DNA from: a virus
UHGV virus genome: UHGV-0332176
Strand: one strand, 5' to 3'
Length of the DNA: 64,000 nt
Shown here one piece after another: positions 36,743 through 64,000 of the stretch. The position numbers and the translations under genes were made by a program. Positions within the stretch are counted from its first letter, which is position 1. Each line of letters opens with the position of its first letter. The notes beneath the pieces are model-generated. The model was not told where the DNA came from and did no database searches. It saw only the letters and a list, made by a program, of their open reading frames with translations.

Positions 36743-36765
36743 TGCGATTTTTTTGTTGACAAGTA

Positions 36766-36793: not shown

Positions 36794-36889
36794 TAAATGT
36801 TTTGGAGAAAAATAATGGTATATCTTTTCATTTTTTGTATTTTATATTTTATTATTTTTAATGATTCAATTAATTAATGGAGAAAAAAT

Positions 36890-37733: not shown

Positions 37734-37747
37734 ATATGAATACGAAT

Positions 37748-37833: not shown

Positions 37834-37925
37834 CACCTCAATAATGCAATAACCTTTACGAGGTTTGAGGTATAAGTAATTCAATAGTTGGATGAAACTA
37901 ATAATTGCAAAATATTGAAAAATTT

Positions 37926-37999
37926 GGCTCGTTAGGCGAATTGGCATAGCCGTCTGTCTTAGGTACAGAAGTTTGGGGGTTCGAGTCCCTCACGAGCTA
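37926..37999 (+). tRNA. type-I (short variable arm) tRNA with Leu anticodon UAG and Leu-like D-arm; CCA encoded
   Basis: Acceptor ggctcgt/acgagct; D region ggcgaattggcatagcc resembles bacterial tRNA-Leu; anticodon loop ctTAGgt; variable loop only 5 nt. Confidence 0.5.
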
Positions 38000-38006
38000 C
38001 CAATAT

Positions 38007-38080
38007 GGGCAGATGACGGAATTGGTATACGTGCTACACTCAAAATGTAGATTTTGTGAGTTCAAATCTCACTCTGCCTA
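38007..38080 (+). tRNA. type-I tRNA with Leu anticodon CAA; CCA encoded
   Basis: Acceptor gggcaga/tctgcct; anticodon arm ctaca-ctCAAaa-tgtag; 5-nt variable loop; T-arm gtgag-ttcaaat-ctcac. Confidence 0.5.
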
Positions 38081-38244
38081 CCAAGATAAATTAAAATTGT
38101 GGGGAAAAATGAGAACAGTTTATGAATATATAAAAGAATTTATTCTTCAAATTTGTTGGCTTTTTAAATAATTTTGTGGAGAAATAATATGTGCAAAGAG
38201 GAAAATGACATCAAGTAAGTTAATAACTTATAGGAGATGTCAAA

Positions 38245-47415: not shown

Positions 47416-48112
47416 TTTCACTCATTGGAACTTCTGAATTAGCATATATAAATCTATATTGAAAAATTTCAGTATTTGTTATGTTAGAATTTATTTTAAT
47501 ATAATCATTTTTAGATACAGGAAATAAACATCTCATAATAACATCTGCTCCATTATGATACCATCCCTGACCATAAATATTATTAGAAAATATTTCAATA
47601 TAATTTGTTGTATTAATATCCGTTTTTTTCTGTAATGATATATATCCATTTGCTATTGCTGTATAACCTGTCAATCCTTGATTCCAAGTATTATCAGTAA
47701 TATCAATATATTTTTTACTGGGCATATCTAAACCTGCACCAGAAATTTGATACCATTCTGTCCATACACCTGTTTCATTTTCATTATATGAATTATAAGT
47801 ACGAGCATAAAGATTTGTTCCAATATTTGTTGAAATTATACTATTTTGTGAGTGGGCATATTGCCAAATTGCCTTCCTTGTTGGCGATGATTTTTGCGTA
47901 TGAACTGTTATAAACCATACTGTTGAATTAAAATCAACAGGACAATGGGTAATATCAATACTTCCAAAATCAACAGGTACATAATATAAACCCGTCTCAA
48001 TTAATGTATCAAAATCAGTATTTTTATTTTTAATTATATAATTTGATTTAGAATTTAATATATCATTTAATCCATCAACACGTGAAATAGGTAATTTACT
48101 TGTATCAACCAT
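47411..48112 (-). CDS. hypothetical protein; MxDTSKLPISRV paralog family (233 aa)
   Basis: N-terminus MVDTSKLPISRVDGL. Leader palindrome at 48125..48153. Confidence 0.5.
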   Translation of the reverse strand: MVDTSKLPISRVDGLNDILNSKSNYIIKNKNTDFDTLIETGLYYVPVDFGSIDITHCPVDFNSTVWFITVHTQKSSPTRKAIWQYAHSQNSIISTNIGTNLYARTYNSYNENETGVWTEWYQISGAGLDMPSKKYIDITDNTWNQGLTGYTAIANGYISLQKKTDINTTNYIEIFSNNIYGQGWYHNGADVIMRCLFPVSKNDYIKINSNITNTEIFQYRFIYANSEVPMSER

Positions 48113-48208
48113 AATTTTATCCCCTTTGAAGTTATTTAATAAATAACTTCAAACCTTTTTAATGAGAGTTCAATGAATAAATATTTGTATAGTTTTAAAG
48201 GTTTTTAA

Positions 48209-50890
48209 ATGGCTGAAATTTTAGGAAATAAATTAAAAATAAATTCAATTGATATTATCCCTTCAACTATCAATCATAATGATGAATATTTAAAAGTTTC
48301 TAGTGATGAAACAAAATATGAATATGTTTCTAATGAAGAAATTAAAAATGAGTTAGATATTTCTTATAATAAAAATGCAACCGTTAATAAAGGTTATAAT
48401 AAAGCATATGATTTATGTTTAACTAATTTTTCAACTGGCTTATTAACATCAAATTGCAGTAATGGATTTGTTATTACAACAAATGGTTCACAATTAGATG
48501 GAAATTGGTCAGTATTAAATTCTTATCGGGGAATAATATTAGATGAATGGTATTCTGCAAAAGCTGATAACATATATCTTCAAATTCAATGCCCAATACC
48601 AATGGCATATACTGGTTTATTAAGAAAAGTTACTGATTGGTATGATAATGTTAGAGCTTATGAACCTTTAAATTTCATAGTTGAAGCATCAAATGATGGA
48701 CAAACCTTTAATGAGATATTTAATCATACAGAAACTGTTTTAGTGCCTCTTAATGTATATACCTATAATTTTAATGAAAACAAAGTAAAATATTTATATT
48801 GGAGATTTAGATACCCTACTGGTGGTGTATCTGGACAGCGTTTTTCTATGATGTTTCTTGGAGAGATTGAACCAAATATTTTTACTCAAACTGAATTTCA
48901 AAAAAATAACATTATTAAAATGCACCCATTTTGGATGCAGGAATTAATACCATACAGAACGACATATACTGATGCAGAAAATAATGGTACTGTATCAGGA
49001 AGTGAAAATATTACTGAATATAATGCTAATAATCAAATGTGGCAAGCATTCCGTGGTCGTGTAGATACTTCAAATCAAGGGTGGATGTCAGCAAATACTC
49101 AAGCAGTTCCTTGTGAGTTAAGATATACACCAACAAACATATATACACCTGGTTATTATTCTTTTTCTTTTAGAAAAGGTATATGGGGTGATACTTGGGG
49201 ATATACACCAATAAATGTTGCTATTGTTATTGTAGATGAAAATGATGTAGAATATCCAGTATGGCATAGAGTTATGCATTTAATTAATCCAGCTACATTT
49301 TCATCAGAAATTCTTTATATACCATTTTCATTTAAACAAGTAAAATGGAGAATTGATGCTAAGTATTCAACACGCGTTTCAATGGGTCATTGCCAAATTT
49401 TAAAATGTGAAAATATTGATTCTTATAATGCTGGTAATGTTAGAGTAGATTATAATATTTTTACTGCAACAAAAGGTCATAATATAAGAGCAGGTGGATA
49501 TTTCCATTTACCAACAATTGAATATAATGTTAGTGAAGATAATCCTTTAGAAGTTACTTTTCCTGATAATTCAAAGAAAACTTTTACATCATTATCTTCT
49601 ATTACAATAAAACCTCAAAAGAAATTTAGATTAATTACTCCAAAACATTTAGATTCAGAAACTTATAATCCAGCAACATTTGGAGAAGTAAGTAATAATC
49701 AAGATTATGTTAACATTGTACAAGGAACTTGTACAGGTATTGGTTCACAATTAGATTCATCAAGATATTTTTGGAAAGCTATTTGTACAGATGTACGAGC
49801 AGTTGATGATTGTTGGTTAACATCAAATAATGGTGCATTAGGTGGACCAATTTATACTTGGAATCAATTAAAACCAAAAGGTAGATATGTATTTAAATTT
49901 AATACTGGTTGGTGGCGAGATACAAATGGTTATTCAGCATCTGAAGTTAGAGTTCACGTAAGAAATGGTGATTCAGATAGCTGGAAAACTGTTTGGAATG
50001 TTGTTAATATTCCAGCAGCATATTCTACTTATTGGTGGTCACCTGTAATTGATATTGATTTTGAATTTAATCAAGTATATTTTGAAATGGTTTCACGAAA
50101 TCAAAGTTATCACGGTGGATTAGCTTGTTGTGCTGTTTTTCAAGAATGTGATTATGATTATCAAATTGGAACTGGTTGGTTAGTTTCTGATGATATTCGT
50201 CAAATTTATGAAAGAGCATATCAATATGCGTATGATTATCAAGAATCTCAAAATTTATATTTAAAAAAAGATGGAACAACTTATGGATTATCTAATTTAG
50301 TATATAGACAATCAGAACAACCATTAGAGCCAAAAGAAAATGATATTTGGTATAATAATAAACAAGAACCTTTAAGAGTTTATCAATATAAAAATAATGA
50401 ATGGGTTGCTTTTAATGATGTATTATTAGGTAATTTTAATTTAGTTAATGGTGTAATTCAATCATTTTATGATAATCCATATAATGATAATGGAACTTAT
50501 AAAAATTCAGATTGTATTTGGTCAAGTGAATTATCATTAACTGATGAAGCAACAATTGTTGATGGTGATGTTTTTACAATTACTAATTTAATATCTAATG
50601 TTTATCATAATTTAAATATTCAAGATACAACTAAATATAAAGCTGAATGCTATTTAAAATGTGTTGCTGAAGATTGTGGTTATGAACCAGGTGATATTGC
50701 TATGGGTACAATGATAGTTTTAACAGCAACTTTATTTGCTCAACCAATTCCATATTTAACAAAAAATACAATTGGTATTTGGACATCTAATTTAAATAAT
50801 GGTTGGAGAATTATTCATAAATGGTCAGGTCAAGTTGTAGAAGCAAATTGTAATAATTGGAGATTAGTATTTAAAATAAGGGAATTATAA
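48209..50890 (+). CDS. receptor-binding/tail-fibre-like protein, paralog 1 (893 aa) with a conserved C-terminal domain
   Basis: C-terminal YEPGDIA...IG(I/L)....N.G......W(R/K)(L/I)(V/I)F(K/R)I is shared with the next two genes. N-terminal regions differ. Confidence 0.5.
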   Translation: MAEILGNKLKINSIDIIPSTINHNDEYLKVSSDETKYEYVSNEEIKNELDISYNKNATVNKGYNKAYDLCLTNFSTGLLTSNCSNGFVITTNGSQLDGNWSVLNSYRGIILDEWYSAKADNIYLQIQCPIPMAYTGLLRKVTDWYDNVRAYEPLNFIVEASNDGQTFNEIFNHTETVLVPLNVYTYNFNENKVKYLYWRFRYPTGGVSGQRFSMMFLGEIEPNIFTQTEFQKNNIIKMHPFWMQELIPYRTTYTDAENNGTVSGSENITEYNANNQMWQAFRGRVDTSNQGWMSANTQAVPCELRYTPTNIYTPGYYSFSFRKGIWGDTWGYTPINVAIVIVDENDVEYPVWHRVMHLINPATFSSEILYIPFSFKQVKWRIDAKYSTRVSMGHCQILKCENIDSYNAGNVRVDYNIFTATKGHNIRAGGYFHLPTIEYNVSEDNPLEVTFPDNSKKTFTSLSSITIKPQKKFRLITPKHLDSETYNPATFGEVSNNQDYVNIVQGTCTGIGSQLDSSRYFWKAICTDVRAVDDCWLTSNNGALGGPIYTWNQLKPKGRYVFKFNTGWWRDTNGYSASEVRVHVRNGDSDSWKTVWNVVNIPAAYSTYWWSPVIDIDFEFNQVYFEMVSRNQSYHGGLACCAVFQECDYDYQIGTGWLVSDDIRQIYERAYQYAYDYQESQNLYLKKDGTTYGLSNLVYRQSEQPLEPKENDIWYNNKQEPLRVYQYKNNEWVAFNDVLLGNFNLVNGVIQSFYDNPYNDNGTYKNSDCIWSSELSLTDEATIVDGDVFTITNLISNVYHNLNIQDTTKYKAECYLKCVAEDCGYEPGDIAMGTMIVLTATLFAQPIPYLTKNTIGIWTSNLNNGWRIIHKWSGQVVEANCNNWRLVFKIREL

Positions 50891-52803
50891 TGACACAAAT
50901 TAATCCAAAAGTAGAATATGATAATTTAGAAGGATTTCCAACATATAATGGAAATGAAATTCATTATATTAAAAGTACCGATGATTTAATAAATTTAAAA
51001 GATGTTTCATTGGATACTGTAAAAACAGAAATGAATTTTAATAATCCACAAATATTAAATTATAATTATATTAAAGAAGCTCCAAAAAATATTTTACAAA
51101 ATATTCAAAAAGAAATTTTTACATTTCCTGTTATGACTGCTAATGAAACTGTTATTGGAGATTTAACATATATTGCATCAAGTTCATCACAATATAATGA
51201 TACTTATGCAGCGTGGAAAGCATTTACAGGTACATTTGCAGCTGAAACAGATGCTTGGCAATCTCAAGTATTACCAACAGTTGATGCACCACAATGGTTA
51301 AAAATTTATTGTGGTGGTCAAGATATATTTCCATTATATTGGATAATTGGAAATTGTGGTTCATATACTCGTTCAATGAAAAATTTTATTATTCAAGGCT
51401 CAAATGATGATTCTCAATGGACTGATTTAGTAACAGATATTAATTATTCTAATATAGCTAATGATACATTTTATGTTTATTCTACTATTAAAAATCAATC
51501 ATTTAAATATTTTAGAATTTATATTACAACAGGAAATGCTACTGATTTAGTAAAAGTTGGTAATTGGTCAATGGTTGGTTATTTAAATTCTTCTACAATT
51601 ACTATTCCTTCTAATATTAATGAACAAAACCCTTTAATTTATATTGATGATAATGGTGAATCTCATACAATTACAGATAATTTAACTATAAATGTTACAC
51701 CAACAAGTTATACAAATATTGTTCCTCATATGAATAGTAATGCTGAACAAGGTTGGACATTAACAAGTAATAGAATGAATGGTTATACTTATGCTCAACC
51801 ATATTATATGACAAATGGAATTAATACTCAAGGTTTCCATTGCAATACTGCAATTGCAACTAATAATATAAGTTATGTTTCATATACAAGAGATACATCA
51901 TTTACACCTGTTGCATTTAAAATTAAAAATAGATGGGATTATGGAAGTGATATTAGTTATGAAGCAATAGTTGGTTTTAATGTTAAAAATGAAAAATCAA
52001 ATGTTTTATATAGAACTAACCAACATTATCGTTTAGCTCAAAATACTTGGCAAGAATTTAGATTACAACGGATTGAACCTTGTATGTCATTTATAATTGA
52101 AGCATTTAATTCCGATAATACTAATGCTTATCATAATTATGGTAGAGGATTTGAAATTTTAGTAGAAGATAATAATGGTACAGATTTCTTAGAATGGAGT
52201 ACATCATATATCTTTTTAAATACAACTACTGAACAATTAGTAGAAGAAAAAGGTGATTTTATTATTTCTCAAGTAATGCCTTCAACACCTAAAAATAATG
52301 ATTTATGGTTAAGTATTTTAGATAAAGGTAGAGTTTATAAATTTAATGGTACTTCGTGGGATTTAACAACTTATATTCCTATTGCGATGATTGTATATAA
52401 CTATTATCAAATTTCATCAGTATATAATTATCCTTTAAATGCTAATTGGTATGATTTAACTACTAAATCAATGTGGAAATCTCCTGAATTAATGCCAGCA
52501 ACAAATAGTTGGATTATGTATCCTCATAATCAACAATTTCAAAATATTAAAACAAAATTTTATGATATGATTTTAATTAATAAAATTGCAGAATTTGGAT
52601 ATGAACCAGGTGATATTGCAGAAGGAGTGTCTATTGATTATGTAGCAACTGATAATCGTTATCCAACAGTATTTTTAGATAATAAATTTATTGGTATACA
52701 TACAGGAACATTAAATACAGGTATATCAATATTACAAAAAAATAGTTCAGTTGAACAATATATAACATTAGCCAATTGGCGTATAATATTTAGAATATGG
52801 TAA
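50890..52803 (+). CDS. receptor-binding/tail-fibre-like protein, paralog 2 (637 aa)
   Basis: Shared C-terminal domain (FGYEPGDIAEG...ANWRIIFRIW). ATGA start/stop overlap. Confidence 0.5.
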   Translation: MTQINPKVEYDNLEGFPTYNGNEIHYIKSTDDLINLKDVSLDTVKTEMNFNNPQILNYNYIKEAPKNILQNIQKEIFTFPVMTANETVIGDLTYIASSSSQYNDTYAAWKAFTGTFAAETDAWQSQVLPTVDAPQWLKIYCGGQDIFPLYWIIGNCGSYTRSMKNFIIQGSNDDSQWTDLVTDINYSNIANDTFYVYSTIKNQSFKYFRIYITTGNATDLVKVGNWSMVGYLNSSTITIPSNINEQNPLIYIDDNGESHTITDNLTINVTPTSYTNIVPHMNSNAEQGWTLTSNRMNGYTYAQPYYMTNGINTQGFHCNTAIATNNISYVSYTRDTSFTPVAFKIKNRWDYGSDISYEAIVGFNVKNEKSNVLYRTNQHYRLAQNTWQEFRLQRIEPCMSFIIEAFNSDNTNAYHNYGRGFEILVEDNNGTDFLEWSTSYIFLNTTTEQLVEEKGDFIISQVMPSTPKNNDLWLSILDKGRVYKFNGTSWDLTTYIPIAMIVYNYYQISSVYNYPLNANWYDLTTKSMWKSPELMPATNSWIMYPHNQQFQNIKTKFYDMILINKIAEFGYEPGDIAEGVSIDYVATDNRYPTVFLDNKFIGIHTGTLNTGISILQKNSSVEQYITLANWRIIFRIW

Positions 52804-52811
52804 GGTAAAAA

Positions 52812-54518
52812 ATGGCAAATAAAACAAGTTATACAAATGTAGAGGGTTTAGTACCATTAAAAAATAATGGAAATAAATTTATTGGTATTAAAAATAATCA
52901 ATTACAAGCAGTATCTAATGAAAATTTATTAGATTCATTTAATATTAGTCAAAGAATACCATTTAGTGTTAATACTTGTTCAGATACTTTTATTAAGCCA
53001 TATGGTATTATTTCAAGTGGAAATGAAATTATATTATATCCAATGAAATTAATGGATTCAAGTAATACTATTGAAATAAATTTAACTGAAACATTAACTA
53101 AAAATATGAATTTATTTGCTGAAGGAAATAATCAGGGTTGTAAAGATAATTCTTATACAAAATGGCAACAACCTGTTATGACTGGTGAATATACTCCTTA
53201 TGGTCATTGTTTTCAATCACAAGGAACAATGACATCAGCTCCTTATATGGCAATGGATGGTGTTATTGATTCTCCATTAAATCAATGGTTAGCATCTACA
53301 ATTAATTCAACTTGGATATATACAAATACTAATCCAATTATTGTTGAATCACTTTATTTACATAATACTAATACAGCTAATAGAAGTAGAGATTTAGATA
53401 TTTTTATTAATGAAGATATTAATCAAAAAATTTTAGAAAATTATGTATGTTCGCCAGATGTATATGATATTAATTATATTAATATTCCTGCTGAAAATAG
53501 AATTGAATCATCATCTATTGGTATTTTAGTTAAAACTGCTTTTGCAGGAACAACTGTTGGATTTACAGAAATTGAAATAAATGCTAAAACTAAATATGTT
53601 CAACCTAATACATACTACAATGTATTTTTAATTACAAATAAAGAACAAACTAAAGTTGATTTTATAATTACAACTGATAAACAACCAATTATGCCTTCTG
53701 GATTTGAAGATGGTTATTATGCTTATGTTAAACAAGTACAAACAGATTTAATTTATAATATTTTTGAAACATCTTTAGGTGATGGTTTAGTGTTTGATAT
53801 GAGTCGTCCATTAACTATTACAGATTGTAATAATCAAACAACCATTATTACAAATGAATTACCTATAATAAAATTTAATGATACTGATTTAACTAAGGAA
53901 ATTATTCATACTGTATATTGTAAAAGTGATGGAACAATATATGATAGAACCGCTAAATTTTATAAAAATTTAGATTCGTTACCAACTGCGTATCAAATTG
54001 GAGAAGTAGCTTTCATTACTGGTAATTATGCTAATGGAAAAGCATTTGAATGGGATGGAGAAAATTGGATAGACTTTAATGATGTTCCTATTTGTGAAGT
54101 ATATCGTTATAATAATAAATCCATAGCAATTAATCAATTTCCTTGCAATAACAATTTTTATATTAAATCTCTACAAAATGATGTATGGATTCACGAAGAA
54201 ACAATGAAATTAGGATTTAATTATATAATTCCTCATAATTTAAATATTGAAGATATTTCAGATTATAAATTTGATTGTCAAATGTTATGTATTCAAGCTG
54301 ATGCAGGTTATTTACCAGGTGAATTAGCAATGTGTCCAACATTAGTTTTTAATGCAACAAATAACATTCGTAATATTCAGCCATATTTAACAAAAAATTA
54401 CATTGGTTTAATGTCAGGAACAGTTAATACAGGTTTTTGGGTTGTAAACAAAACAAGAGGATATGCTTGGGATGCTAATCTTTCTTGTTGGAAACTCATA
54501 TTTAGAATTTGGAAATAG
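52812..54518 (+). CDS. receptor-binding/tail-fibre-like protein, paralog 3 (568 aa)
   Basis: Shared C-terminal domain (AGYLPGELAMC...SCWKLIFRIWK). Confidence 0.5.
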   Translation: MANKTSYTNVEGLVPLKNNGNKFIGIKNNQLQAVSNENLLDSFNISQRIPFSVNTCSDTFIKPYGIISSGNEIILYPMKLMDSSNTIEINLTETLTKNMNLFAEGNNQGCKDNSYTKWQQPVMTGEYTPYGHCFQSQGTMTSAPYMAMDGVIDSPLNQWLASTINSTWIYTNTNPIIVESLYLHNTNTANRSRDLDIFINEDINQKILENYVCSPDVYDINYINIPAENRIESSSIGILVKTAFAGTTVGFTEIEINAKTKYVQPNTYYNVFLITNKEQTKVDFIITTDKQPIMPSGFEDGYYAYVKQVQTDLIYNIFETSLGDGLVFDMSRPLTITDCNNQTTIITNELPIIKFNDTDLTKEIIHTVYCKSDGTIYDRTAKFYKNLDSLPTAYQIGEVAFITGNYANGKAFEWDGENWIDFNDVPICEVYRYNNKSIAINQFPCNNNFYIKSLQNDVWIHEETMKLGFNYIIPHNLNIEDISDYKFDCQMLCIQADAGYLPGELAMCPTLVFNATNNIRNIQPYLTKNYIGLMSGTVNTGFWVVNKTRGYAWDANLSCWKLIFRIWK

Positions 54519-54528
54519 TATAAATATT

Positions 54529-54536
54529 TTATATAA
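54529..54536 (+). promoter_or_regulatory. TATAAATA match (T4-type late-promoter -10 consensus) 18 nt upstream of the 54554 gene
   Basis: Exact octamer; a second exact copy is at 6944..6951, upstream of 6998. Confidence 0.3.
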
Positions 54537-54553
54537 GAAATGAAGGATTATGT

Positions 54554-55279
54554 ATGTCTACAATTTATGATATAGCTGGTACAAGTGCAAATTCATTTAA
54601 TTTAAATGGTAAGGTAACATTATTACAAGGTGATGAAGCTCCACAAATATATCAAGGAGTTGATGGTGATGTTTATTTTAGAACAAATGGTTTAATTTAT
54701 TCTAAACAAAATGGAACTTGGTTAAACTTATCATCTGCATCATTACCAGATGCTGCAACAGGTGATGGTAAATTTATTGTTTCTAATGGACAAAACTATG
54801 AATTTTATGATTTATCTGTTAATGATATTGCATTTTTATCAAGAAATAATGTATTTACAGGTAGCAATACATTTAATAATGTTGTTCAAGGTACAGCATT
54901 CAGAACTTATTGGGGTGACTTAGCTGAAATTTATGAAACTGATAAGGAATATCCAAAAGGTACATTGGTTAAATTTGGTGGTGATAAAGAAATTACAATA
55001 GCCGATACACAAGTTAATGCAGTAATTTCTTCAGAACCTGGTTTAATTTTAAATACTCAAAATAAAACAGGTCAAGCTATTGCATTAATTGGTAGAGTTC
55101 CTGTTAGAGTTATTGGTAATTGTAAAAAATTTGATTATTTAACATTATCAGATGTTCCAGGTGTTGCAACTGTATTAGAAGATAATGAATTTCCATTAAA
55201 TGTTATTGCAAGAGCATTAGAAAATAAAGATTATGTTGAAGAAGGTCTAGTTCTTTGTGTTATAAAATTTGATTTATAA
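54554..55279 (+). CDS. tail-fibre-associated protein (241 aa)
   Basis: Adjacent to the RBP paralogs; G/N/T-rich. Confidence 0.4.
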   Translation: MSTIYDIAGTSANSFNLNGKVTLLQGDEAPQIYQGVDGDVYFRTNGLIYSKQNGTWLNLSSASLPDAATGDGKFIVSNGQNYEFYDLSVNDIAFLSRNNVFTGSNTFNNVVQGTAFRTYWGDLAEIYETDKEYPKGTLVKFGGDKEITIADTQVNAVISSEPGLILNTQNKTGQAIALIGRVPVRVIGNCKKFDYLTLSDVPGVATVLEDNEFPLNVIARALENKDYVEEGLVLCVIKFDL

Positions 55280-55303
55280 TTTTTTATTTTTGCTTTCTTT
55301 TAT

Positions 55304-55338
55304 TAAATCCTCTATATTTGTATAGGGGATTTTTTATA
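55304..55338 (+). terminator. rho-independent terminator (aaatcctctata...tataggggattt + T6)
   Basis: Read directly. Confidence 0.55.
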
Positions 55339-55368
55339 ATAAATAATTAATATAATTGGAGAAAATAT

Positions 55369-56136
55369 ATGGTAAAATTTTCATATAAATTAGTAAAAAC
55401 AGATAAAATAGTTCGTAAAGATGAAAATAAACATAAAATAATTGAATTAATTCCTCATAATGATATTACAAAAGAGGAATTAATAGATTTATTAAAATAT
55501 GTTTATGATTTAGAAAATAATGAAAAATTTAAAGATAATATTTTATTAAAATTAAAAGGATTAAATACTGACTTAATTGAAGAATCTATTAAATATTCTT
55601 TGACAAGAGAAGATTTAAAAGACCCTTTAATGATTTTAAATATTATTAATTTAATTAAAATTTATAATAATTTAAATGATAATTTTTTCCAAGATGAAAA
55701 TATCTATATTGATTCAAAAAAGCAATTATTAGATATTAAAAAACATATTAAACAAGAATTAAAAGATTTTATTAAAAAATTAAGTATCTACTTTATTTCA
55801 ATAATTAAATCTTATAATAAAGTAACTTATACCTCTCTTGATACTTATACTGTTTTACCAAATATTTATAAAACAATATTTTTATCATCTGACTTTTTAA
55901 CATTAGCAGGTATTTTATCAGTATCAGATTCATTTAATACAGAAGAATGTGTTACTGTTAAGGATTCATTTACATATGTTTCTTCATTATTAACAAAAAA
56001 TTTATTAAGTATTAATTTAATGAATAACTTTTTTAAAGATTTTGATGAAAAAATAAAAAAGGATAAAAATGACAATAGCAACCAATCAAGTAATTGTTTA
56101 TCAAGATTTATTAGATTTTGTTTTAACAAATCTTAA
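55369..56136 (+). CDS. hypothetical protein (255 aa), K/N/I-rich
   Basis: RBS attggagaaaatatatg. Confidence 0.4.
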   Translation: MVKFSYKLVKTDKIVRKDENKHKIIELIPHNDITKEELIDLLKYVYDLENNEKFKDNILLKLKGLNTDLIEESIKYSLTREDLKDPLMILNIINLIKIYNNLNDNFFQDENIYIDSKKQLLDIKKHIKQELKDFIKKLSIYFISIIKSYNKVTYTSLDTYTVLPNIYKTIFLSSDFLTLAGILSVSDSFNTEECVTVKDSFTYVSSLLTKNLLSINLMNNFFKDFDEKIKKDKNDNSNQSSNCLSRFIRFCFNKS

Positions 56137-56689
56137 AGCAAAATGCTCAAATATTGATACTTTTGCAAGTAATGTTCCTGTTTCTTTACGAAATGGTTCA
56201 AGTTATGTATTAGCTTCTACTCCTGGCGGAAATGGAACAGTAACAGCAACTGGTACAGTTAATGATAGTTTATTAGTAACTGTTCCTACTGCAACAGTTG
56301 AACAACAATTGAATGATTTTTTAATTGCCAGAGGAATTAAAAACAAACCTGATAGAGTAGTTGCTTTTAAAGATATTATGAATTTTTATAATAATATTGC
56401 GTCATTTTTGGCTACAAAATTAATGTTTGTAAGTAATAGTTTTGGTAGTGGAACATTTATTTTTTATAATAGTGCAAATAATTCATATCCATCTGTAAAT
56501 TTAAATGTATCAGATATTAATTTTACTAATCCTGAAATTAAAACAAGCATTACAGATTTAATGAATGCAATTAATAATGTTTCAAATACTCACTATGCAG
56601 CAACAACTATTGTTTATACGTGTTCATCAAGTAGTTCATCAAGTTGTTCTTCATCAAGTTCAATGTTTATTGCATATATGGATATATAA
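56069..56689 (+). CDS. hypothetical protein with C-terminal poly-Ser/Cys tail (YTCSSSSSSSCSSSSSMFIAYMDI); paralog of the next gene
   Basis: RBS aaggataaaaatg. Overlaps the previous gene by 68 nt. Tail encoded by the DNA microsatellite tcatcaagt(n)t at 56624..56663. Confidence 0.4.
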   Translation: MTIATNQVIVYQDLLDFVLTNLKAKCSNIDTFASNVPVSLRNGSSYVLASTPGGNGTVTATGTVNDSLLVTVPTATVEQQLNDFLIARGIKNKPDRVVAFKDIMNFYNNIASFLATKLMFVSNSFGSGTFIFYNSANNSYPSVNLNVSDINFTNPEIKTSITDLMNAINNVSNTHYAATTIVYTCSSSSSSSCSSSSSMFIAYMDI

Positions 56690-57240
56690 TGGCTTTACAA
56701 AATATTACATACAACGAAATAGTTGAAACAGTTAAAAATTATATTAAAACAAATTGTATGAATATTGCAAATTTTGGAGCAATTCCAGCTGCCTTTAAAG
56801 CAGGTTATACATTATCAGGAAATATTAGTTCTTCAGGTGATAGATATACTTCTAAATATGTTGTAACAATTACAAGAGCTGTTACACAGGTTGCATCAAG
56901 TGTTGTTGATACAGATATGAATAATTTTTTAACAACAATTAATGTAACTAATAAATTAAATAATAATATTCCTGCAAGTGAATTTATTAATTTTATTAAT
57001 GATATAGTTAGTTTTTGTTCAACAAAATTATGCTTTGCAACTAGTCAATATGATGGAAATAGATATTTAATTTATTATACACCTAATACTTCATATTCTT
57101 CAATTGTTTCAATTAATACAAATGAAAGTAATAAAATTGTTCAAGCAAATGATGTTAATTCAATATTAAATATGCTTTTGAATGTTATTAAACAAAATAT
57201 CAGAAATGTCCCTTGTACATATAATATTGCATTATCATAA
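56689..57240 (+). CDS. hypothetical protein, paralog of 56069..56689 (track start 56644 trimmed to ATG 56689)
   Basis: Shared segments (NNFL..I...NK; F(L/C)(A/S)TKL.F...). TAATG overlap. Confidence 0.4.
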   Translation: MALQNITYNEIVETVKNYIKTNCMNIANFGAIPAAFKAGYTLSGNISSSGDRYTSKYVVTITRAVTQVASSVVDTDMNNFLTTINVTNKLNNNIPASEFINFINDIVSFCSTKLCFATSQYDGNRYLIYYTPNTSYSSIVSINTNESNKIVQANDVNSILNMLLNVIKQNIRNVPCTYNIALS

Positions 57241-57288
57241 TTTAATTGATATACTTTTCTTTAATAAAAATATTGAAGGAAACATATT

Positions 57289-58155
57289 ATGAATTGTAAA
57301 CCTGTTTATGAATTTTTATTATGGGATAATTGTAATAATCATTGTAAATTTTGCTGGCAACGAGAAAATCCTCGCTTATTTAATAAATCTCAACGAGAAA
57401 TCATTTTAAATAATGTAATTAAATTTATTAATAGTAATAAATTTAAAAAAGATAGTCATATTCTCATTGTTGGCGGAGAAATTTTTGATAATCCATCTGA
57501 TTTTGAATTATTAGATACATTTTTTTGCCAAATACTTGAATTTATGATTAATGGAACAATTGATTTATTATATATCAATACAAATCTAATATATAAAGAT
57601 TTAACAGGTATTATTCGTTTAATTAAACGAATAGAAACATTAAATTTATTTGATAGATTAAGATTTACAACATCCTTTGATATAGAAGGAAGATTTAAAT
57701 CAGAAGATGATAAACAATTAATGTTATCTAATTTAAAACTTTTAACAGGAATTTATGATAAATTGCAAGTTGTTACAAATATCATTTTAACTAAACCTAT
57801 GTGTCAAGCAATTATTAATGATAAATTTAGTGTTGGACAATTTATGAAAAAATATAAATGCTGGGTTAATCTAATTCCATATATTGTTTTAGATAATAAT
57901 TTAACAGCGGATAGAGAAGAAATATTTTCAACATTACAAAAAGTTGATGAAGAAAATAATGGTTATTTACAAAAATATATTACAAATTTAGATTTAGCAC
58001 AAGATAAGTTATTATATATGTATAAAGATAATAAATTTCAATTTTGTAGTTGTGAAAATTCTGAATGTGGACATTCAATAAACTTTAAGAAATATTCAGA
58101 TACTAATGATTGTTATATTTGTGATTTAAAGGAATTATTCAATGGAAAAATTTAA
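57289..58155 (+). CDS. radical SAM enzyme, paralog A (CNNHCKFC; GGE motif; C-terminal Cys cluster CENSECGH...CYICD)
   Basis: CxxxCxxC 14 aa from the N-terminus; IVGGEIF; C-terminal C..C..CGH...C..C. Confidence 0.6.
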   Translation: MNCKPVYEFLLWDNCNNHCKFCWQRENPRLFNKSQREIILNNVIKFINSNKFKKDSHILIVGGEIFDNPSDFELLDTFFCQILEFMINGTIDLLYINTNLIYKDLTGIIRLIKRIETLNLFDRLRFTTSFDIEGRFKSEDDKQLMLSNLKLLTGIYDKLQVVTNIILTKPMCQAIINDKFSVGQFMKKYKCWVNLIPYIVLDNNLTADREEIFSTLQKVDEENNGYLQKYITNLDLAQDKLLYMYKDNKFQFCSCENSECGHSINFKKYSDTNDCYICDLKELFNGKI

Positions 58156-59062
58156 AAATAAAAATCGTTTTATTCAATTTGAATTATGGAAAGACTGTAG
58201 TTTAGGTTGTAAATTTTGTTTTAATAAAAAACAAAAAGATGTTAATAAAATTGAATCTTTACAATTTGTTTTAAATAAATTAGATGATTCCGAAATGTTA
58301 GATTATAATGAAATTGGTTTTATTGGCGGAGAATTTTTTAATAATGAATTAAAAGATAATGATGTTAAACAACTTTTTTATAATTTATTTAAAAAACTTT
58401 CTACTATGCATTTTGAAAAAATATATATTACAGGAGCATTAATGTATGATATGCAACAATATCTTATCCCTTTTTTAAATTATTTAAAAAAATTAAAAAT
58501 ATTAGAAAAAGTTTTATTATGCACATCATATGATTTAAAATATCGTTTTTATACAAAAGAAAGAGAAGATTTATGGAAAAATAATATGTTAACACTTCAT
58601 AAATTATATCCAGAATTAAAATTACATACTGAAACAGTTATTACTCAATATTTTATTGATGCAGTTTTAAATGATGAATTTAGTATAACTGAATTTTGTA
58701 ATACATATCATACCAGATTAGATTATATTGAACCAACATCAGGATTATATTATAAAGATAAGCAAGAATGTATGAAAGATATTCCTGATTTTTTTCCAAC
58801 AAAAGATAGTTTTATTGATTTTATGATGAAAACAGGTGTAGAATCAAATGAAATAGATTTAAAAACATTTTTATCTATGGAAATACGTTCAAATAAATTA
58901 TATTATTTAGATGAAGGTATAAGATGTGTTTCAGCAAATAGACGTGAAAATGATGGAATGATTGTTCCAAAAGATAGTTCTATTAAATATGAAATTGGGT
59001 TTGCAGATTCTGATGATAATATGCCAGAATTAGTTAGAGATTTTTGTTTAACAGTAGGATAA
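58142..59062 (+). CDS. radical SAM enzyme, paralog B (CSLGCKFC), lacks the C-terminal CGH Cys cluster
   Basis: CxxxCxxC; IGFIGGEFF. Confidence 0.55.
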   Translation: MEKFKNKNRFIQFELWKDCSLGCKFCFNKKQKDVNKIESLQFVLNKLDDSEMLDYNEIGFIGGEFFNNELKDNDVKQLFYNLFKKLSTMHFEKIYITGALMYDMQQYLIPFLNYLKKLKILEKVLLCTSYDLKYRFYTKEREDLWKNNMLTLHKLYPELKLHTETVITQYFIDAVLNDEFSITEFCNTYHTRLDYIEPTSGLYYKDKQECMKDIPDFFPTKDSFIDFMMKTGVESNEIDLKTFLSMEIRSNKLYYLDEGIRCVSANRRENDGMIVPKDSSIKYEIGFADSDDNMPELVRDFCLTVG

Positions 59063-59066
59063 TATT

Positions 59067-60056
59067 ATGAATTTAATAGATTGGTGGATTAATTTAAATC
59101 CTTTAAATTATAAAGAAGAATTAGCATTATTATCTACACGAAATGATGAATATACTGGTAATGAAACAGATTTACCAAGTAATGAGGAATTTTTTAATCG
59201 TTTGCCAATGTGTAATTTATCTAAACCATATAGTGTACGTGTTGATAAATGTGCAACAACTTTAATTCAAGGTTTATTTGATACTTATATTGATGATGAT
59301 ACACTTGTTATATATACTGAAAATGAACATTATAAAATTAAAGAAATTCTTAATACGTTTAAAAATAGATTAGTATTAAGTTATGATGATATTCTTAAAT
59401 TAAATATGTCTAAAATAGCTTCAAGTCTATCTAAATTTAAAAAAGTATTTGTATACATTATTGGGACACAATTATCTAGTGGAGAAATTACACCTCAATA
59501 TTTTTTTATTAAATTAAAAGAATTATTAAATACTTATAAATGCCATTATAAATTAGTTTTAGATGACGTACACGGAATGTATTTTGTTCCTCGTGATTAT
59601 AGTTTATTTGATTATATTATTGGTACAACTCACGCTTTAATTCCAACATATCATATGGGAATTTTAATTGGTAAAGAAAATATGAATAAGTTTGGTAAAA
59701 ATGGTTATCATTGGATAATTGATTATTTTGAAGCATTAGATGTATTATTAAGTAGAAAAGAAAAAATTTATCAATTTAATTATGTATTAGAGCAAAGTTT
59801 AGCTGATATTTTAGCAAAAGGGAAATGTCATTTATTAACTCAAAAAGCTCCTCATTTATTTGCTATTAAAACAGACCAAATAAACTTTAATCAAGAATTT
59901 AAAAATGAAATGGATGAATATGGAATACGTTTAGAAGGAGTAAATAATGAATTAAAATATATTCTTCTTAGAGTATCACAATTTATTATTAATCCTCAAA
60001 ATTTAAAAGAAGGTATAGAAACTTTAAAAATAGCATTAGATTATATGTATGAATAG
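59067..60056 (+). CDS. non-rSAM protein embedded in the array (329 aa), possible PLP-fold enzyme (LVLDDVHG)
   Basis: No CxxxCxxC; the D-D-V-H segment resembles aminotransferase fold-I motifs only weakly. Confidence 0.35.
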   Translation: MNLIDWWINLNPLNYKEELALLSTRNDEYTGNETDLPSNEEFFNRLPMCNLSKPYSVRVDKCATTLIQGLFDTYIDDDTLVIYTENEHYKIKEILNTFKNRLVLSYDDILKLNMSKIASSLSKFKKVFVYIIGTQLSSGEITPQYFFIKLKELLNTYKCHYKLVLDDVHGMYFVPRDYSLFDYIIGTTHALIPTYHMGILIGKENMNKFGKNGYHWIIDYFEALDVLLSRKEKIYQFNYVLEQSLADILAKGKCHLLTQKAPHLFAIKTDQINFNQEFKNEMDEYGIRLEGVNNELKYILLRVSQFIINPQNLKEGIETLKIALDYMYE

Positions 60057-60065
60057 GAAAAACAA

Positions 60066-61001
60066 ATGGATAATAAGCAAAATATGGTTCAATTTGGTGT
60101 ATGGAGTAATTGTTGTAATGCGTGCGATTTTTGTTTACGTGAAGAAAGAATTCCATATAGTAAAGAAAAGCAATTATATTATTTAGATATGATTAAAAAA
60201 AATATTGAATATATTGATTGGAAAGATAAATTTTCTTATGGTATCTCATTATTAGGCGGTGAATTATATTATATTACTGATAAAGATTTACAAAAATCAT
60301 TTTTAGAATTGATTGATGTTATTATTGAAAAAATTTTAAAAGTTTCTCCAAATCCAGAATGCAAATATTCAACAGTAACTAATGGATTATACGACCCAAC
60401 ATTTTTATATCAAGTAATTGATAAAATTGTTAAAGAAGTAGGATTAAAAGCAATTGATGTTAATTTTTCATATGATTTAAAATATAGATTTAAATCAGAA
60501 GAAGATAGATTAAAAGTTCTAAAAAATATTAATGATTTTCATAAAAGATATAATTATAATGTTGGTGTACAAATGATTATGACACAATATGTAATTAATG
60601 AATGGAAAGCTGGCAGATTTGATGTTAATAAATTTATGGAAGAAGAAATTCCTGGTAATTATTTAACATTTTTATATCCACATCCTATTAGAACAGGTAA
60701 AAAATTAGACGATTTTAATTTTAACCGAACAGACTTTTTAGATTTTATTCAATATTTAAAAGATGAATGTTATAATGTATATTTGTCATTTTTACATTCA
60801 ACTAAAAATTCAGGAACATTTAAATATACTGGTTTACAAAATCGTGTACATCCTTCAGTAGATGCTCAACCAGTTTTATCAGATGGAAAAGAAATAATTA
60901 ATGAAAATTGCGGGCACTCAATTATATATAAATGTTATAGTGATTGTGATGATTGTGTATTATGTGATTTAAAAGAATTTGATGAGGAAGTATATATATG
61001 A
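60066..61001 (+). CDS. radical SAM enzyme, paralog C (CCNACDFC; C-terminal CGHSIIYKCYSDCDDCVLCD)
   Basis: Both motifs read directly; LLGGELYY. Confidence 0.6.
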   Translation: MDNKQNMVQFGVWSNCCNACDFCLREERIPYSKEKQLYYLDMIKKNIEYIDWKDKFSYGISLLGGELYYITDKDLQKSFLELIDVIIEKILKVSPNPECKYSTVTNGLYDPTFLYQVIDKIVKEVGLKAIDVNFSYDLKYRFKSEEDRLKVLKNINDFHKRYNYNVGVQMIMTQYVINEWKAGRFDVNKFMEEEIPGNYLTFLYPHPIRTGKKLDDFNFNRTDFLDFIQYLKDECYNVYLSFLHSTKNSGTFKYTGLQNRVHPSVDAQPVLSDGKEIINENCGHSIIYKCYSDCDDCVLCDLKEFDEEVYI

Positions 61002-61984
61002 AAAAACAAATGCAATTTGAATTATGGGATGAATGTAATTCTAAATGTACTTTTTGTCATTTATGTAATAAAAATAATATAACACCAAATGAAACAAAAC
61101 TTAATATGATTCAAGATACTTTAGATAAAATATCTAATTTATCTATATATGATGAGTATGATACAATAGGTTTTATTGGTGGAGAATTTTTTCAAGGTCA
61201 ACTTAATACTCCTGAAATTAAATCTAAATTTATGGAATTAATGGATAAATCAAGATGGTTATTAGATAATGATTATATTGAGAATGTATGGATTAATATA
61301 ACTTTAACAATTGGAAACCAAAATGACTTATATGACGTTTTAAAGCGTTTTGAAGGGCATAAAGGAAATTTATGGTTACTTACTTCATATGATACGTTAG
61401 GACGCTTCCATAGCCAAAAAATGCTGGATAATTGGGATTATCATATGAAAAACATTCATAAGTTATATCCAGAAATTAAATTTAATATTACAAGTATATT
61501 AACAGGTGACTTTATTGAAAAGTATTTAAATAATGAAATAAATTTTACACAAATGATGGAAGAATATCATTGTTCATTATTTTTTAAAGTTCCTGCATTA
61601 CAAAAAGAATTCTATAAATCCAATAAAGAAATGAATAATGCCATTGGTCATTTTTTTCCAACAAGAGATTTATTTTTAGAATTTTTAACTACTTTTCGTC
61701 AAACAGAACATCCTGATTTATGGAATAAATTATTTAATATTGCATATCGGGCTGATACATTGTATTGTCAAGAGAATGGGGATGATATAGAAATTACTCG
61801 TAATAAAGATAATGATTATATGGAAATTATTATTGATAATACAACAAATAAACAACTAATTAGAGATAAAGAAAAACAAATGGATTATATTATGGATTGT
61901 GGACATTTAAGTACATATAATTCATATGTTGATGAAGATGGATGTGCAATTTGTGATAAATTAATGATAGAAGAATTAATATAA
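60998..61984 (+). CDS. radical SAM enzyme, paralog D (CNSKCTFC; C-terminal CGHLSTYNSYVDEDGCAICD)
   Basis: Shares a 66-nt identical tract with paralog E. Confidence 0.6.
   Translation: MKKQMQFELWDECNSKCTFCHLCNKNNITPNETKLNMIQDTLDKISNLSIYDEYDTIGFIGGEFFQGQLNTPEIKSKFMELMDKSRWLLDNDYIENVWINITLTIGNQNDLYDVLKRFEGHKGNLWLLTSYDTLGRFHSQKMLDNWDYHMKNIHKLYPEIKFNITSILTGDFIEKYLNNEINFTQMMEEYHCSLFFKVPALQKEFYKSNKEMNNAIGHFFPTRDLFLEFLTTFRQTEHPDLWNKLFNIAYRADTLYCQENGDDIEITRNKDNDYMEIIIDNTTNKQLIRDKEKQMDYIMDCGHLSTYNSYVDEDGCAICDKLMIEELI
61178..61243 (+). repeat. 66-nt tract identical to 62184..62249 and 65/66 to 63618..63681, inside three rSAM paralogs (encodes GGEFFQGQLNTPEIKSKFMEL)
   Basis: Exact nucleotide identity inside otherwise diverged paralogs. 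Confidence 0.8.
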
Positions 61985-62003
61985 AAATTTTAAAGGATTA
62001 ATA

Positions 62004-62954
62004 ATGAGTAAACAATTACAATTTGAATTATGGCAAGAATGTAATTCTAAATGTAAATTTTGTTATTTAGGAAAAGAAAATTGTTATACGCCAAATGAAA
62101 TAAAATTACAATCATTACAAAATGCATTAGATAAAATATCAGATTTATCAATTTATAAAGAATATGATACATTATCATATTTAGGTGGAGAATTTTTTCA
62201 AGGTCAACTTAATACTCCTGAAATTAAATCTAAATTTATGGAATTAATGAAAAAAACAGCGTGGCTATATGAACATAACTACATTAAACACGTATGGATT
62301 TATGCTACTTTAACAATTGGTGACCAAAAAGATTTATATGAAACTTTAAATTTATTTAATAAAAAAGATGAATTATGGATTTTAACTTCATATGATACAA
62401 TTGGAAGATTTCATACACAAAAAATGTTAGATAATTGGGATTATCATATGAAAAACATTCATAATTTATATCCAGAAATTAAATTTAATATTACAACCAT
62501 ACTTTCTGAAGATTGTATAGACAAATATTTAAATGATAATTTATCATTTAAAAAAATGATGGAAGAATATCATTGTTCATTCTTTTTTAAACAATGCGGA
62601 AATGGACCATATTCAAAAGAAGAAATGAATACTATTCTTCCACATTTTTTTCCACCACGAGATAAATTTATAGATTTCCTACAAAAATTTCGTAATGAAG
62701 AAAACGATGAAATGTGGAATAAATTATTTAATATTCATTATAGAGCTGATAGTTTATATAGAAATTTTAATGATAAAAATCATCAAATGGAATTAAATGT
62801 ACGTCATAAGGATTCATTAAATGAAATTGAAAATAATAATAAAGATGAAATGGAAACAAATGATTGTGGACATTTAAAAGTTTATGCAGCTTATATAGAT
62901 TGTGATGATTGTGTATTATGTGATAAATTAATGATAGAAGAACTTTTAAAATAA
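62004..62954 (+). CDS. radical SAM enzyme, paralog E (CNSKCKFC; C-terminal CGHLKVYAAYIDCDDCVLCD)
   Basis: Read directly. Confidence 0.6.
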   Translation: MSKQLQFELWQECNSKCKFCYLGKENCYTPNEIKLQSLQNALDKISDLSIYKEYDTLSYLGGEFFQGQLNTPEIKSKFMELMKKTAWLYEHNYIKHVWIYATLTIGDQKDLYETLNLFNKKDELWILTSYDTIGRFHTQKMLDNWDYHMKNIHNLYPEIKFNITTILSEDCIDKYLNDNLSFKKMMEEYHCSFFFKQCGNGPYSKEEMNTILPHFFPPRDKFIDFLQKFRNEENDEMWNKLFNIHYRADSLYRNFNDKNHQMELNVRHKDSLNEIENNNKDEMETNDCGHLKVYAAYIDCDDCVLCDKLMIEELLK

Positions 62955-62964
62955 GGATTAATAA

Positions 62965-63441
62965 ATGATTACTATTGAAAATAATGATAAAGATATTACT
63001 ATTGAAAATGATAAAAATCAACCATATGTTAAAAAAATTATTTTAAATAAAGATTTAACAATTAAAGCTCAAACAAATACATCTTTTAATATTAATACAA
63101 TTTTTACTTTTTCAGATAATAATGATTTTGCATTTGTTGAAGGTGTTATTGTTGAAGCAAATGATTATTATATTGTTGGTGAAGTATATAGTTTAGACCG
63201 TGAAAATAATAAATTATCATTATTAATTGGGAATAATTCTAATAAATCTTATACAATTCCTGCTGGCACACATATTGGTAATATATATATTACATCAAAA
63301 AATTTGACAGGAAATGTTATTTATGATAATGGTAATTTAGCAGTTATTGATTATAATAATTTTTATAAAGTTGATAATACAACCTTAACTGAATATCCAG
63401 ATGGAAAAAAAGCTATTACTATTAACTTGGATAAAGAATAA
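62965..63441 (+). CDS. non-rSAM hypothetical protein inside the array (158 aa)
   Basis: RBS aaggattaataaatg. Confidence 0.4.
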   Translation: MITIENNDKDITIENDKNQPYVKKIILNKDLTIKAQTNTSFNINTIFTFSDNNDFAFVEGVIVEANDYYIVGEVYSLDRENNKLSLLIGNNSNKSYTIPAGTHIGNIYITSKNLTGNVIYDNGNLAVIDYNNFYKVDNTTLTEYPDGKKAITINLDKE

Positions 63442-64000
63442 TGAGCTTACAAATACAATATGAATTATGGCGAGAGTGTAATTGTAACTGTACATATTGC
63501 ACTCTTGGTTTTGATAATCATAAAACCGAGAATAAATTAAAACTTCAATCAATGCAAACCGCTATTGATGAAATGAAAAACTTTGAACCAAATGAACATC
63601 AAACAGTAGGTTTTATTGGTGGAGAATTTTTTCAAGGTCAACTTAATACTCCTGAAATTAAATCCAAATTTATGGAATTAATTAAAGTAGCTAATGATTT
63701 ATTAAATAATCATATTGTTAAAGATTTATGGTTAAATGCTTCATTATTAATTGGTAATCAAAAAGATTTATATGAAGCTATTGATTTAATTGATGATAAA
63801 ACAAAATTATGGATTTTAACTTCATATGATAGTATTGGAAGATTTCATACTCCTAAAATGCTAGAAACTTGGCAATATCATATGAAAAATATTCATAATT
63901 TATATCCAGAAATTAAATTAAACACAACGAGCATATTAACAGGTGATTTTATTGAAAAATATTTAAATGATAATATTGATATTAAAGAATTTAAAGCAAC
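63441..64000 (+). CDS. radical SAM enzyme, paralog F (CNCNCTYC), truncated by the window end
   Basis: CxxxCxxC and VGFIGGEFFQGQLNTPEIKSKFMEL. Confidence 0.55.
   Translation, partial: MSLQIQYELWRECNCNCTYCTLGFDNHKTENKLKLQSMQTAIDEMKNFEPNEHQTVGFIGGEFFQGQLNTPEIKSKFMELIKVANDLLNNHIVKDLWLNASLLIGNQKDLYEAIDLIDDKTKLWILTSYDSIGRFHTPKMLETWQYHMKNIHNLYPEIKLNTTSILTGDFIEKYLNDNIDIKEFKA

Follow-up and report, generated by a model that had tools for sequence, protein, structure and literature searches.

The last part of a 64,000-nucleotide stretch of the virus genome UHGV-0332176 (the whole analyzed stretch is hereafter termed the window) encodes six intact radical S-adenosylmethionine (SAM) proteins, R1 to R6, which are members of a new radical-SAM family in the neighborhood of the SPASM/twitch, viperin and MoaA enzymes. 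The genes belong to a cassette that opens with a 255-residue protein (U255) and two paralogous S proteins, one of which ends in a run of serines and cysteines. This C-terminal tail, consisting of the [Ser/Cys] run and a FIAYMxI motif, is the putative substrate of the enzymes, in a maturation resembling that of peptides made on the ribosome and then modified post-translationally (RiPPs); we give this reading a probability of roughly 45%.

All six radical-SAM genes lie on the plus strand. R1 (57289-58155, 288 residues) and R2 (58142-59062, 306 residues) are followed by R3 (60066-61001, 311 residues) and by three copies of a type that we term D, namely R4 (60998-61984, 328 residues), R5 (62004-62954, 316 residues), which was chosen for modeling, and R6 (63441-64000), which is cut by the window end. 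The full R6 was read from contig L001, which is 99.5% identical to the window (window coordinate = L001 coordinate + 52030); it comprises 318 residues and ends at ~64424, about 424 nt beyond the window. A first-pass annotation, made from the sequence alone, had counted at least six paralogs with CxxxCxxC and GGE motifs, and both motifs are indeed present in every protein, at residues 13-19 and 60-64, respectively. R2 to R6 align with R1 over their full length at 21-25% identity. Residue W12, the three cysteines of CxxxCxxC, GGE and the residues S129/D131/R135/F136 are invariant in the six paralogs; CxxxCxxC and GGE are invariant in 37 homologs as well. A second cysteine cluster, CGH-x(11-13)-C-x2-C, occurs at the C-terminus of R1, R3, R4, R5 and R6, the R6 copy lying beyond the window, and is absent from R2, the sole type without it; the cluster first noticed in four proteins is thus real but belongs to five of the six. 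The annotation had also taken the array to continue past the window and proposed extending the contig. Only the end of R6 continues; it is followed by a plus-strand gene for a 207-residue protein (X207, to ~65044) and then by tail-fiber-like genes on the minus strand, so that the array ends at six copies. Strain L019 has seven copies, and the surveyed loci usually carry ~3-9 radical-SAM genes per genome.

Against the generic Pfam model PF04055, the R proteins score 14-28 bits and none reaches the gathering cut-off of 29.5, because the family is too diverged for such a model. Only R2 reaches the cut-off of PF13353 Fer4_12 (23.2 versus 22 bits), the other Radical_SAM and Fer4_12 matches being sub-threshold, and the PHROGs match is the generic phrog_1802, “radical SAM domain-containing protein”. 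NCBIfam matches of 9-25 bits, mostly within the first 60-140 residues, comprise viperin, PapB, HxsC, NrdG, MoaA and many others, all far below their cut-offs. The initial statement that the proteins are not QueE, NrdG or viperin was borne out: the QueE, NrdG and PflA activase models gave 12-17 bits against cut-offs of 126-260, and the viperin model NF038283 gave 18-25 bits against 180, with a match covering the N-terminal 60 residues around the cluster loop only. A tblastn search with R5 against 50,697 GenBank phages returned nothing at E <= 1e-3, and one with R1 returned only matches of 25-28% identity to single radical-SAM genes of phiKZ-like and Campylobacter phages. The SPASM models of Pfam and NCBIfam do not match the R proteins, in which the seven-Cys SPASM motif is absent: outside the SAM cluster, only C288, C303 and C306, in addition to H290, are conserved. 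The UPF0004 plus radical-SAM (plus TRAM) architecture of methylthiotransferases is absent from R1 to R6 and from all other open reading frames (ORFs) of the window. Altogether, the profile searches and structure prediction suggested by the first annotation yielded no curated radical-SAM family that fits.

The predicted structure of R5 shows a partial TIM-barrel radical-SAM core, with a hairpin (residues 250-267) and a helix (residues 280-283) preceding the CGH...C..C motif. Its closest fold match is anSME, with a score of 14.6 and an alignment that spans 254 residues, followed by SkfB (14.2), BlsE (14.0), viperin (13.9), ChlB (13.4), MoaA (13.3), SuiB (13.1) and CteB (12.7), all at 10-17% identity to R5. 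By sequence, the best PDB match is viperin (E 7e-4), and none of the viral predicted structures is close (TM <= 0.48). A profile search of 1.84 billion representative proteins collected 819 clusters, 256 of them at E <= 1e-30. This library is without source labels; in a word-indexed search and in genome and virus scans, every homolog with a visible source came from a metagenome or a contig of a metagenome-assembled genome (MAG), and none from a cultured organism. Full-text searching of the literature found no paper on the radical-SAM family, the Ser-tailed proteins or the cassette.

In a neighbor-joining tree of 48 family members from 11 loci, the window proteins cluster with orthologs of other phages rather than with each other. 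The tree separates a clade of R1, a clade of R2 (with a sister clade absent here), a clade of R3, and a clade D that unites R4, R5 and R6; R6 has an ortholog of its own in L008. We further surveyed 40 loci, 12 from species genomes and 28 from IMG/VR and other metagenomes, using one profile per neighboring protein. Typing of these loci showed a recurring order of R1, R2, R3 and D, of which all but R2 have the C-terminal Cys motif; this order was found by tree and best-hit typing in L009, L028, L030, L031, L037, L039 and L042 at 35-60% identity. The types recur in ~30 giant gut phage loci, down to 25-37% identity. The ortholog grouping and the recurring order indicate that the paralogs are old and individually maintained. 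As judged from these comparisons, the array holds four old types kept as orthologs, with the D type triplicated in this lineage, and not a recent expansion; of the single diverging multigene family described at first, it is the recent triplication of D that stands.

Separately maintained paralogs are the pattern expected of a multi-step pathway or a hetero-complex, and fusion proteins among the homologs point in the same direction. Two family domains stand in tandem in P0370; in P0368, P0374 and P0379, an R2-type domain is fused to the core of a methylthiotransferase of the MiaB/RimO type; and P0263 and P0266 combine a P-loop-like (ATPase-like) domain with a D-type domain. The N-terminal extensions of long family members do not match cassette proteins; where identified, they are a methylthiotransferase core, a P-loop ATPase-like domain, a second radical-SAM domain or an intein. 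The D-type metagenome homolog P0269 carries its intein just after the CxxxCxxC loop; inteins typically reside in conserved sites of important genes.

Nearly always, the radical-SAM genes follow a U255 homolog and one or two S genes, at least one of them tailed. The order U255, S with tail, S paralog and 3-5 radical-SAM genes is found in ~30 of the 40 surveyed loci, and the cassette is retained in the most distant relatives, L044, L045 and L047 (25-37% identity). In most loci without it, the contig breaks off near the array; some upstream flank is left in L009, L014 and L035, and it holds no S protein. The unit is duplicated in L008, L033, L046 and L026, and it is rearranged and inverted in places. 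L026 distributes its enzymes over two S pairs, with R3 and D at one and R1, R2 and a methylthiotransferase at the other. This 237-kb genome (L026/L022/L023, IMGVR_UViG_3300045988_171990) has one sub-module of R3, D, X158 and an S pair, and a second of R1, X329, two R2-type genes, a divergent radical-SAM gene, a methylthiotransferase and an S pair; the split suggests two separable enzyme sets.

In the window, S206 (56069-56689, plus strand), the candidate substrate, consists of a ~185-residue domain and a C-terminal tail of the sequence C-SSSSSSS-C-SSSSS-MFIAYMDI. Its paralog S198 (56689-57240, plus strand; profile E 5.5e-46) ends in ...NVPCTYNIALS and most likely starts at the ATG at 56689, in a one-base overlap with the S206 stop (TAATG). 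The two genes at 56069..57240 had been described as Ser/Cys-tailed paralogs; they are paralogous, but only S206 is tailed here, and in distant relatives both copies carry a tail. The tail consensus is [S/C]8-36, one residue, (F/Y)-I-(A/V)-(Y/F)-(M/F)-x-(I/L) and then 0-4 residues. It is kept down to relatives at 25-37% identity, and the S body drops to ~20-40% identity. The serines of S206 are encoded by mixed AGT, TCA and TCT codons, which indicates selection of the serine run at the protein level. Within the tail (56621-56689), strains of ~99% identity differ by a nine-residue indel, SSSSSSSCS, giving proteins of 206 versus 215 residues. Inspection by eye found no obvious signal sequence in S206. 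An assignment of the S family to a baseplate wedge protein (phrog_232, 6 of 24 members) was rejected, as the matches vanish once the poly-Ser tail is removed.

U255 (55369-56136, plus strand) accompanies the cassette in ~30 loci and has no Pfam or PDB match, either as a single sequence or as a 22-sequence profile; PDB sequence and profile searches with S206, U255 and X329, a cassette protein described below, yielded nothing usable. From U255 on, little or no space separates the genes, and stops overlap with the starts that follow. Between the last tail-fiber-like gene and U255, a terminator-like hairpin on the plus strand (55305-55332; a 12-bp stem followed by a T-run, identified by consensus match only) is likely the upstream boundary of the cassette transcription unit, which would likely comprise U255, S206, S198, R1, R2, X329, R3, R4, R5, X158, R6 and X207. 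A promoter scan gave fewer matches than in shuffled sequences and is uninformative in DNA of 25% GC.

Several observations argue for the S tail as the substrate. The gene layout, with precursor genes followed by several maturases, is that of RiPP clusters; the tail has been kept as the S body diverged; and the best fold matches of the enzymes are peptide-modifying, including anSME, which oxidizes Ser/Cys. The arrangement that marks RiPP systems, a precursor adjoining its maturases with a conserved core and a variable remainder, was found at ~30 loci. In the proposed mechanism, each R enzyme would cleave SAM on the [4Fe-4S] cluster bound by CxxxCxxC, and the resulting 5'-deoxyadenosyl radical would abstract a hydrogen from the substrate; in R1, R3 and D, the CGH...C..C motif may hold a second metal site. 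The modifications that the distinct types make on the serine run or the FIAY motif may differ or follow one another, with anSME-like Ser/Cys oxidation, epimerization and thioether or cyclophane cross-links as candidate chemistries, and optional partner proteins could elaborate the product. The matured S protein is most likely virion- or infection-associated, because the cassette directly follows tail-fiber-like genes, as it does in many relatives.

Three points weigh against this reading. No RiPP recognition element (RRE) domain, leader peptidase or exporter was identified in the cassette; the absence of an N-terminal RRE follows from the radical-SAM proteins starting at the cluster loop. The number of cysteines in the tail varies from 0 to 8, and a Cys-dependent thioether chemistry could not be universal, because some tails are without Cys. 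All relatives belong to one phage clade, so the synteny could partly reflect shared ancestry, an objection weakened by the rearrangement, inversion and duplication of the cassette as a unit. A bolder version of the proposal, which we regard as possible but unlikely, is that giant gut phages own a RiPP-like machinery in which four cooperating radical-SAM types iteratively turn the poly-Ser tail of a tail- or infection-associated protein into a new modified polymer, while the recombining D copies adjust the specificity as phage and host compete in an arms race. Such a polymer might be poly-formylglycine, an amine derivative made via the PLP-fold protein X329, or a chain of alternating D/L, methylthiolated or cross-linked residues.

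The D copies share a tract, GGEFFQGQLNTPEIKSKFMELM, that is located on the plus strand at 61178-61243 in R4, 62184-62249 in R5 and 63618-63683 in R6. As first reported, the R4 and R5 copies are exactly identical, and this run of 66 nt is the longest between the two genes; the R6 copy, given as 65/66 at 63618..63681, in fact differs at 2 of 66 nt. A further block, TTATGGATTTTAACTTCATATGATA, occurs at 62373 and 63807. When the first 200 codons were shuffled, the longest observed identical run was reached in 8, 0 and 15 of 20000 shuffles for the three D pairs. In this AT-rich genome, 165 of the 191 codons (86%) for the same amino acid in R4 and R5 are identical anyway, so the 66-nt identity alone is weak evidence. 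The segment after GGEFFQGQ is variable in amino-acid sequence among the D copies of other genomes.

Stronger evidence for the gene conversion proposed by the first-pass annotation comes from other strains. Every D copy of the window, L001 and L018 has GGT as the Gly codon of the tract, and every D copy of L019, L024 and L025 has GGA; this fixation of synonymous variants across paralogs within a lineage indicates concerted evolution. In L018 (102 kb), the gene in the place of R4 matches R4 outside a ~230-nt patch, which is at least 95% identical to R5 and has the two shared blocks as its edges. L019 (78.8 kb), with seven radical-SAM genes, has an extra gene of 327 codons that resembles R6 on the 5' side of the tract and R4 on the 3' side, and its last radical-SAM gene resembles R5 on the 5' side and R6 on the 3' side; in other strains the tract is thus a recombination junction. 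Two unequal crossovers at the tract would produce the L019 arrangement, and every combination of flanks is seen among protein variants of other samples. Both hybrid-bearing contigs are low-coverage short-read assemblies (~6x according to their names), in which a 66-nt repeat can be mis-joined. Sequence comparison supports gene conversion and unequal crossing-over among the D copies at the shared tract. For the array itself, the assembly artifact that had been raised as an alternative is excluded, because at least 24 contigs from independent assemblies (ENA, NCBI, IMG/VR and Logan), the longest of 289 kb, show the same gene order.

Apart from U255 and the S genes, the cassette contains partners that are optional across the surveyed genomes: X329, X158, X207 and a methylthiotransferase. 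The “two unrelated genes” that had been seen between the paralogs are X329 and X158; both are present, but as recurrent members of the same cassette. X329 (59067-60056, plus strand) has, by structure prediction only, a fold-type I pyridoxal phosphate (PLP) enzyme fold, closest to NifS/class V aminotransferases. The fold and the pyridine-nitrogen-binding Asp are present, and the Schiff-base lysine of the SxHK motif is absent: the motif reads T-(A/T)-H-(A/S), with no invariant or nearly invariant lysine in 46 homologs. The protein P0251, with a QueA-like PF02547 N-terminal half and a C-terminal stretch of 100 residues 76% identical to X329, was judged to come most likely from a chimeric contig. 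Some strains have a 242-residue ORF between X329 and R3 (L002 7334-8062, L019 3892-4620) with a weak HNH_5 match (E 0.009); it is absent from the window at ~60057-60065 and probably reflects a polymorphic insertion of a homing endonuclease in the cassette. X158 (62965-63441, plus strand, 158 residues) stands beside D-type copies in closer relatives and matches no family in Pfam, PHROGs or NCBIfam. X207 and two homologs weakly match TYW3 over 28 residues around a (T)xxSCxG motif (best E 4.8e-4); against PF02676, the copy of the window lineage scores 17.3 bits, below the 27-bit cut-off, and the top PDB match, the TYW3 homolog 2drv at E 0.03, is a lead only. The methylthiotransferase cores match TIGR00089 at E 1e-65, with MtaB as the best equivalog. 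They are fused to an R2-type domain in at least three 50%-identity clusters and stand alone inside the arrays of L005, L006, L007 and L015, one of them with a TRAM domain.

These partners bring forward the main rival to the substrate proposal, a hypermodification of nucleic acid, either tRNA (perhaps the phage's own) or phage DNA, in which the S proteins would be neighbors with another role. The MiaB/RimO-family cores that are fused to the R2 type or lie within arrays, one with TRAM, the match of X207 and both tested homologs to TYW3 or 2drv at the SxCxG motif, and the 25 tRNA genes of the window would all suit it. Moreover, PLP and radical-SAM enzymes co-occur in known phage thymidine hypermodification pathways. 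Its partners, however, are optional, whereas the S and U255 genes are nearly constant, and we consider it rather unlikely. A pathway for a small molecule, such as a nucleotide, nucleotide-sugar or amino-acid-derived metabolite, would resemble those of viperin, BlsE, MoaA and DesII, with the PMP/PLP-fold protein acting as in deoxysugar pathways and with a surface-glycan-modifying sugar or an antimetabolite as the possible product. No cassette gene was recognized as encoding a glycosyltransferase, nucleotidyltransferase or kinase, X329 is optional, and the viperin model matches the N-terminal cluster loop alone at 18-25 bits against 180. Since the near-constant S-tail and U255 genes are also left unexplained, this pathway appears quite improbable.

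The S protein might also be a sacrificial precursor, whose FIAY(M) motif is cross-linked or decarboxylated and released as a cofactor-like product, as in the pathways of PQQ (PqqA/PqqE) or mycofactocin (MftA/MftC), with the serine run as a spacer. However, no part of the tail is longer or more conserved than the serine run, a folded domain of ~185 residues would be unusual as a leader, no peptidase or PqqD/MftB-like chaperone was recognized, and at least four radical-SAM types are more than such pathways need; we regard this as a doubtful explanation. That the array consists of decaying or neutral tandem duplicates or of misassembled reads, without a coherent function, is scarcely credible: paralogous repeats can confuse assemblers, but the six ORFs are intact with invariant catalytic motifs, the orthologs of each type are kept across dozens of independently assembled contigs, and one homolog bears an intein, an element typical of important genes.

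The maturation of the S tail by the R enzymes, which we favor, differs in several respects from known systems. The SPASM/twitch maturases (anSME, SkfB, CteB, SuiB and ChlB; sactipeptide, ranthipeptide and SCIFF clusters) share 10-14% identity with the present family. Compared to them, the C-terminal extension here has three Cys and one His in place of the seven-Cys motif, and an N-terminal RRE is lacking; the candidate substrate is a poly-Ser-tailed protein of ~200 residues rather than a short peptide, and four enzyme types are encoded per cassette in a giant phage of virulent type. The nearest functional analogue would be the bacterial HXS antiphage system, in which the His-Xaa-Ser repeats of HxsA are matured by the radical-SAM pair HxsB/HxsC (PMC13128918). 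Both have several radical-SAM enzymes, a folded protein with a Ser-containing repeat and a setting of phage-host conflict, and R1 and R6 weakly match the HxsB/HxsC models (12-16 bits against cut-offs of 268-370). The HXS system is bacterial, with an HxS repeat and a periplasmic effector that has a signal peptide, whereas the present cassette is phage-encoded with a poly-Ser/Cys run. Viperins are single-copy defense genes that act on nucleoside triphosphates and lack the C-terminal Cys motif, in contrast to the present family. In many relatives, a methylthiotransferase of the MiaB/MtaB/RimO family is a fusion partner or is encoded among the cassette genes, whereas R1 to R6 have neither the UPF0004 nor the TRAM domain and are not methylthiotransferases.

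Many radical-SAM genes have also been described in the Campylobacter phages CP220 and CPt10, which carry 11-12 of them, including an exchangeable module of five, near a tail-fiber gene (Timms et al. 2010, PMC2853527). These are likewise AT-rich gut phages with many radical-SAM genes and a tail-fiber gene nearby, but the CP220 module, unlike the present cassette, has as partners an amidinotransferase, glycosyltransferase-like genes and a PAP2 phosphatase, and no Ser-tailed protein is annotated in the 18-kb stretch of CP220 retrieved. Membership of the CP220 proteins in the same family was rejected: the family profile finds nothing in gp087 and gp099, the two tested, tblastn gives E ~0.5, and Foldseek gives TM <= 0.43.

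The window is AT-rich (22-33% GC). Positions 52031-64000 match human-gut metagenome contigs (ENA, NCBI and IMG/VR) of up to 289 kb at 99.5% identity, which indicates that the window is a piece of the genome, 288 kb in size, of an uncultured giant gut phage. A blastn search against deposited phages found no close relatives. Attempts at host or taxon placement with the 429- and 912-residue proteins found no informative relatives, and the taxon labels of MAGs with homologs are mutually inconsistent, the label “Bacilli”, seen three times, being a hint only. In the scan of species genomes, family matches occur only on MAG contigs, several of 245-283 kb; given these sizes and the inconsistent taxonomy, the contigs are probably mis-binned phage genomes.

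Elsewhere in the window, an island of 25 tRNA genes for most amino acids (23383-38083) includes tRNA-Ile(UAU), three tRNA-Met and three tRNA-Asn. Stop-codon recoding was considered as the reason for the ORF-poor stretch at 22-34 kb and rejected, as the stretch is this island and shows no sign of recoding. Within the island lies the gene of the 429-residue protein (34455-35744; phrog_850, “RNA-binding protein”), which has homologs at 39-42% identity in unrelated Ralstonia, Xanthomonas and Bacteroides phages. A dispersed repeat of ~115 nt (86-90% identity) is present at 15978-16094 and 48056-48145 and reversed at L002 18441-18555; the third copy adjoins a “Collar” gene downstream of the array, and the repeat may be a regulatory or promoter element. 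Positions 48209-55279 encode three mutually related tail-fiber-like proteins (893, 637 and 568 residues) and then a 241-residue protein. The 893- and 637-residue proteins have sub-threshold matches to an F5/8 type C (galactose-binding-like) domain, and homologs of the 241-residue protein lie directly 5' of the cassette in many relatives.

The reactions of radical-SAM enzymes are among the most difficult in biology, and a new family often comes with new chemistry. The cassette is of a known kind, the radical-SAM-based maturation cassettes, and is marked by its candidate substrate, its viral setting and the active recombination of its paralogs. The family is tied to an unusual candidate, a protein with up to 36 Ser/Cys residues followed by a fixed seven-residue motif, and if this link holds, it would define a new class of ribosomally made and enzymatically matured proteins encoded by viruses rather than bacteria. 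Should the tail be turned into a poly-Ser-derived polymer, the modification would be new for proteins, and no earlier phage-native protein-maturation system would have multiple radical-SAM enzymes. The recombining D copies show clearly, in nature, how paralogs within a phage genome evolve in concert and change in copy number. Phages of this kind are frequent in the guts of infants and animals, and the cassette offers a testable handle on a question open since 2010, namely why some phages carry many radical-SAM genes.

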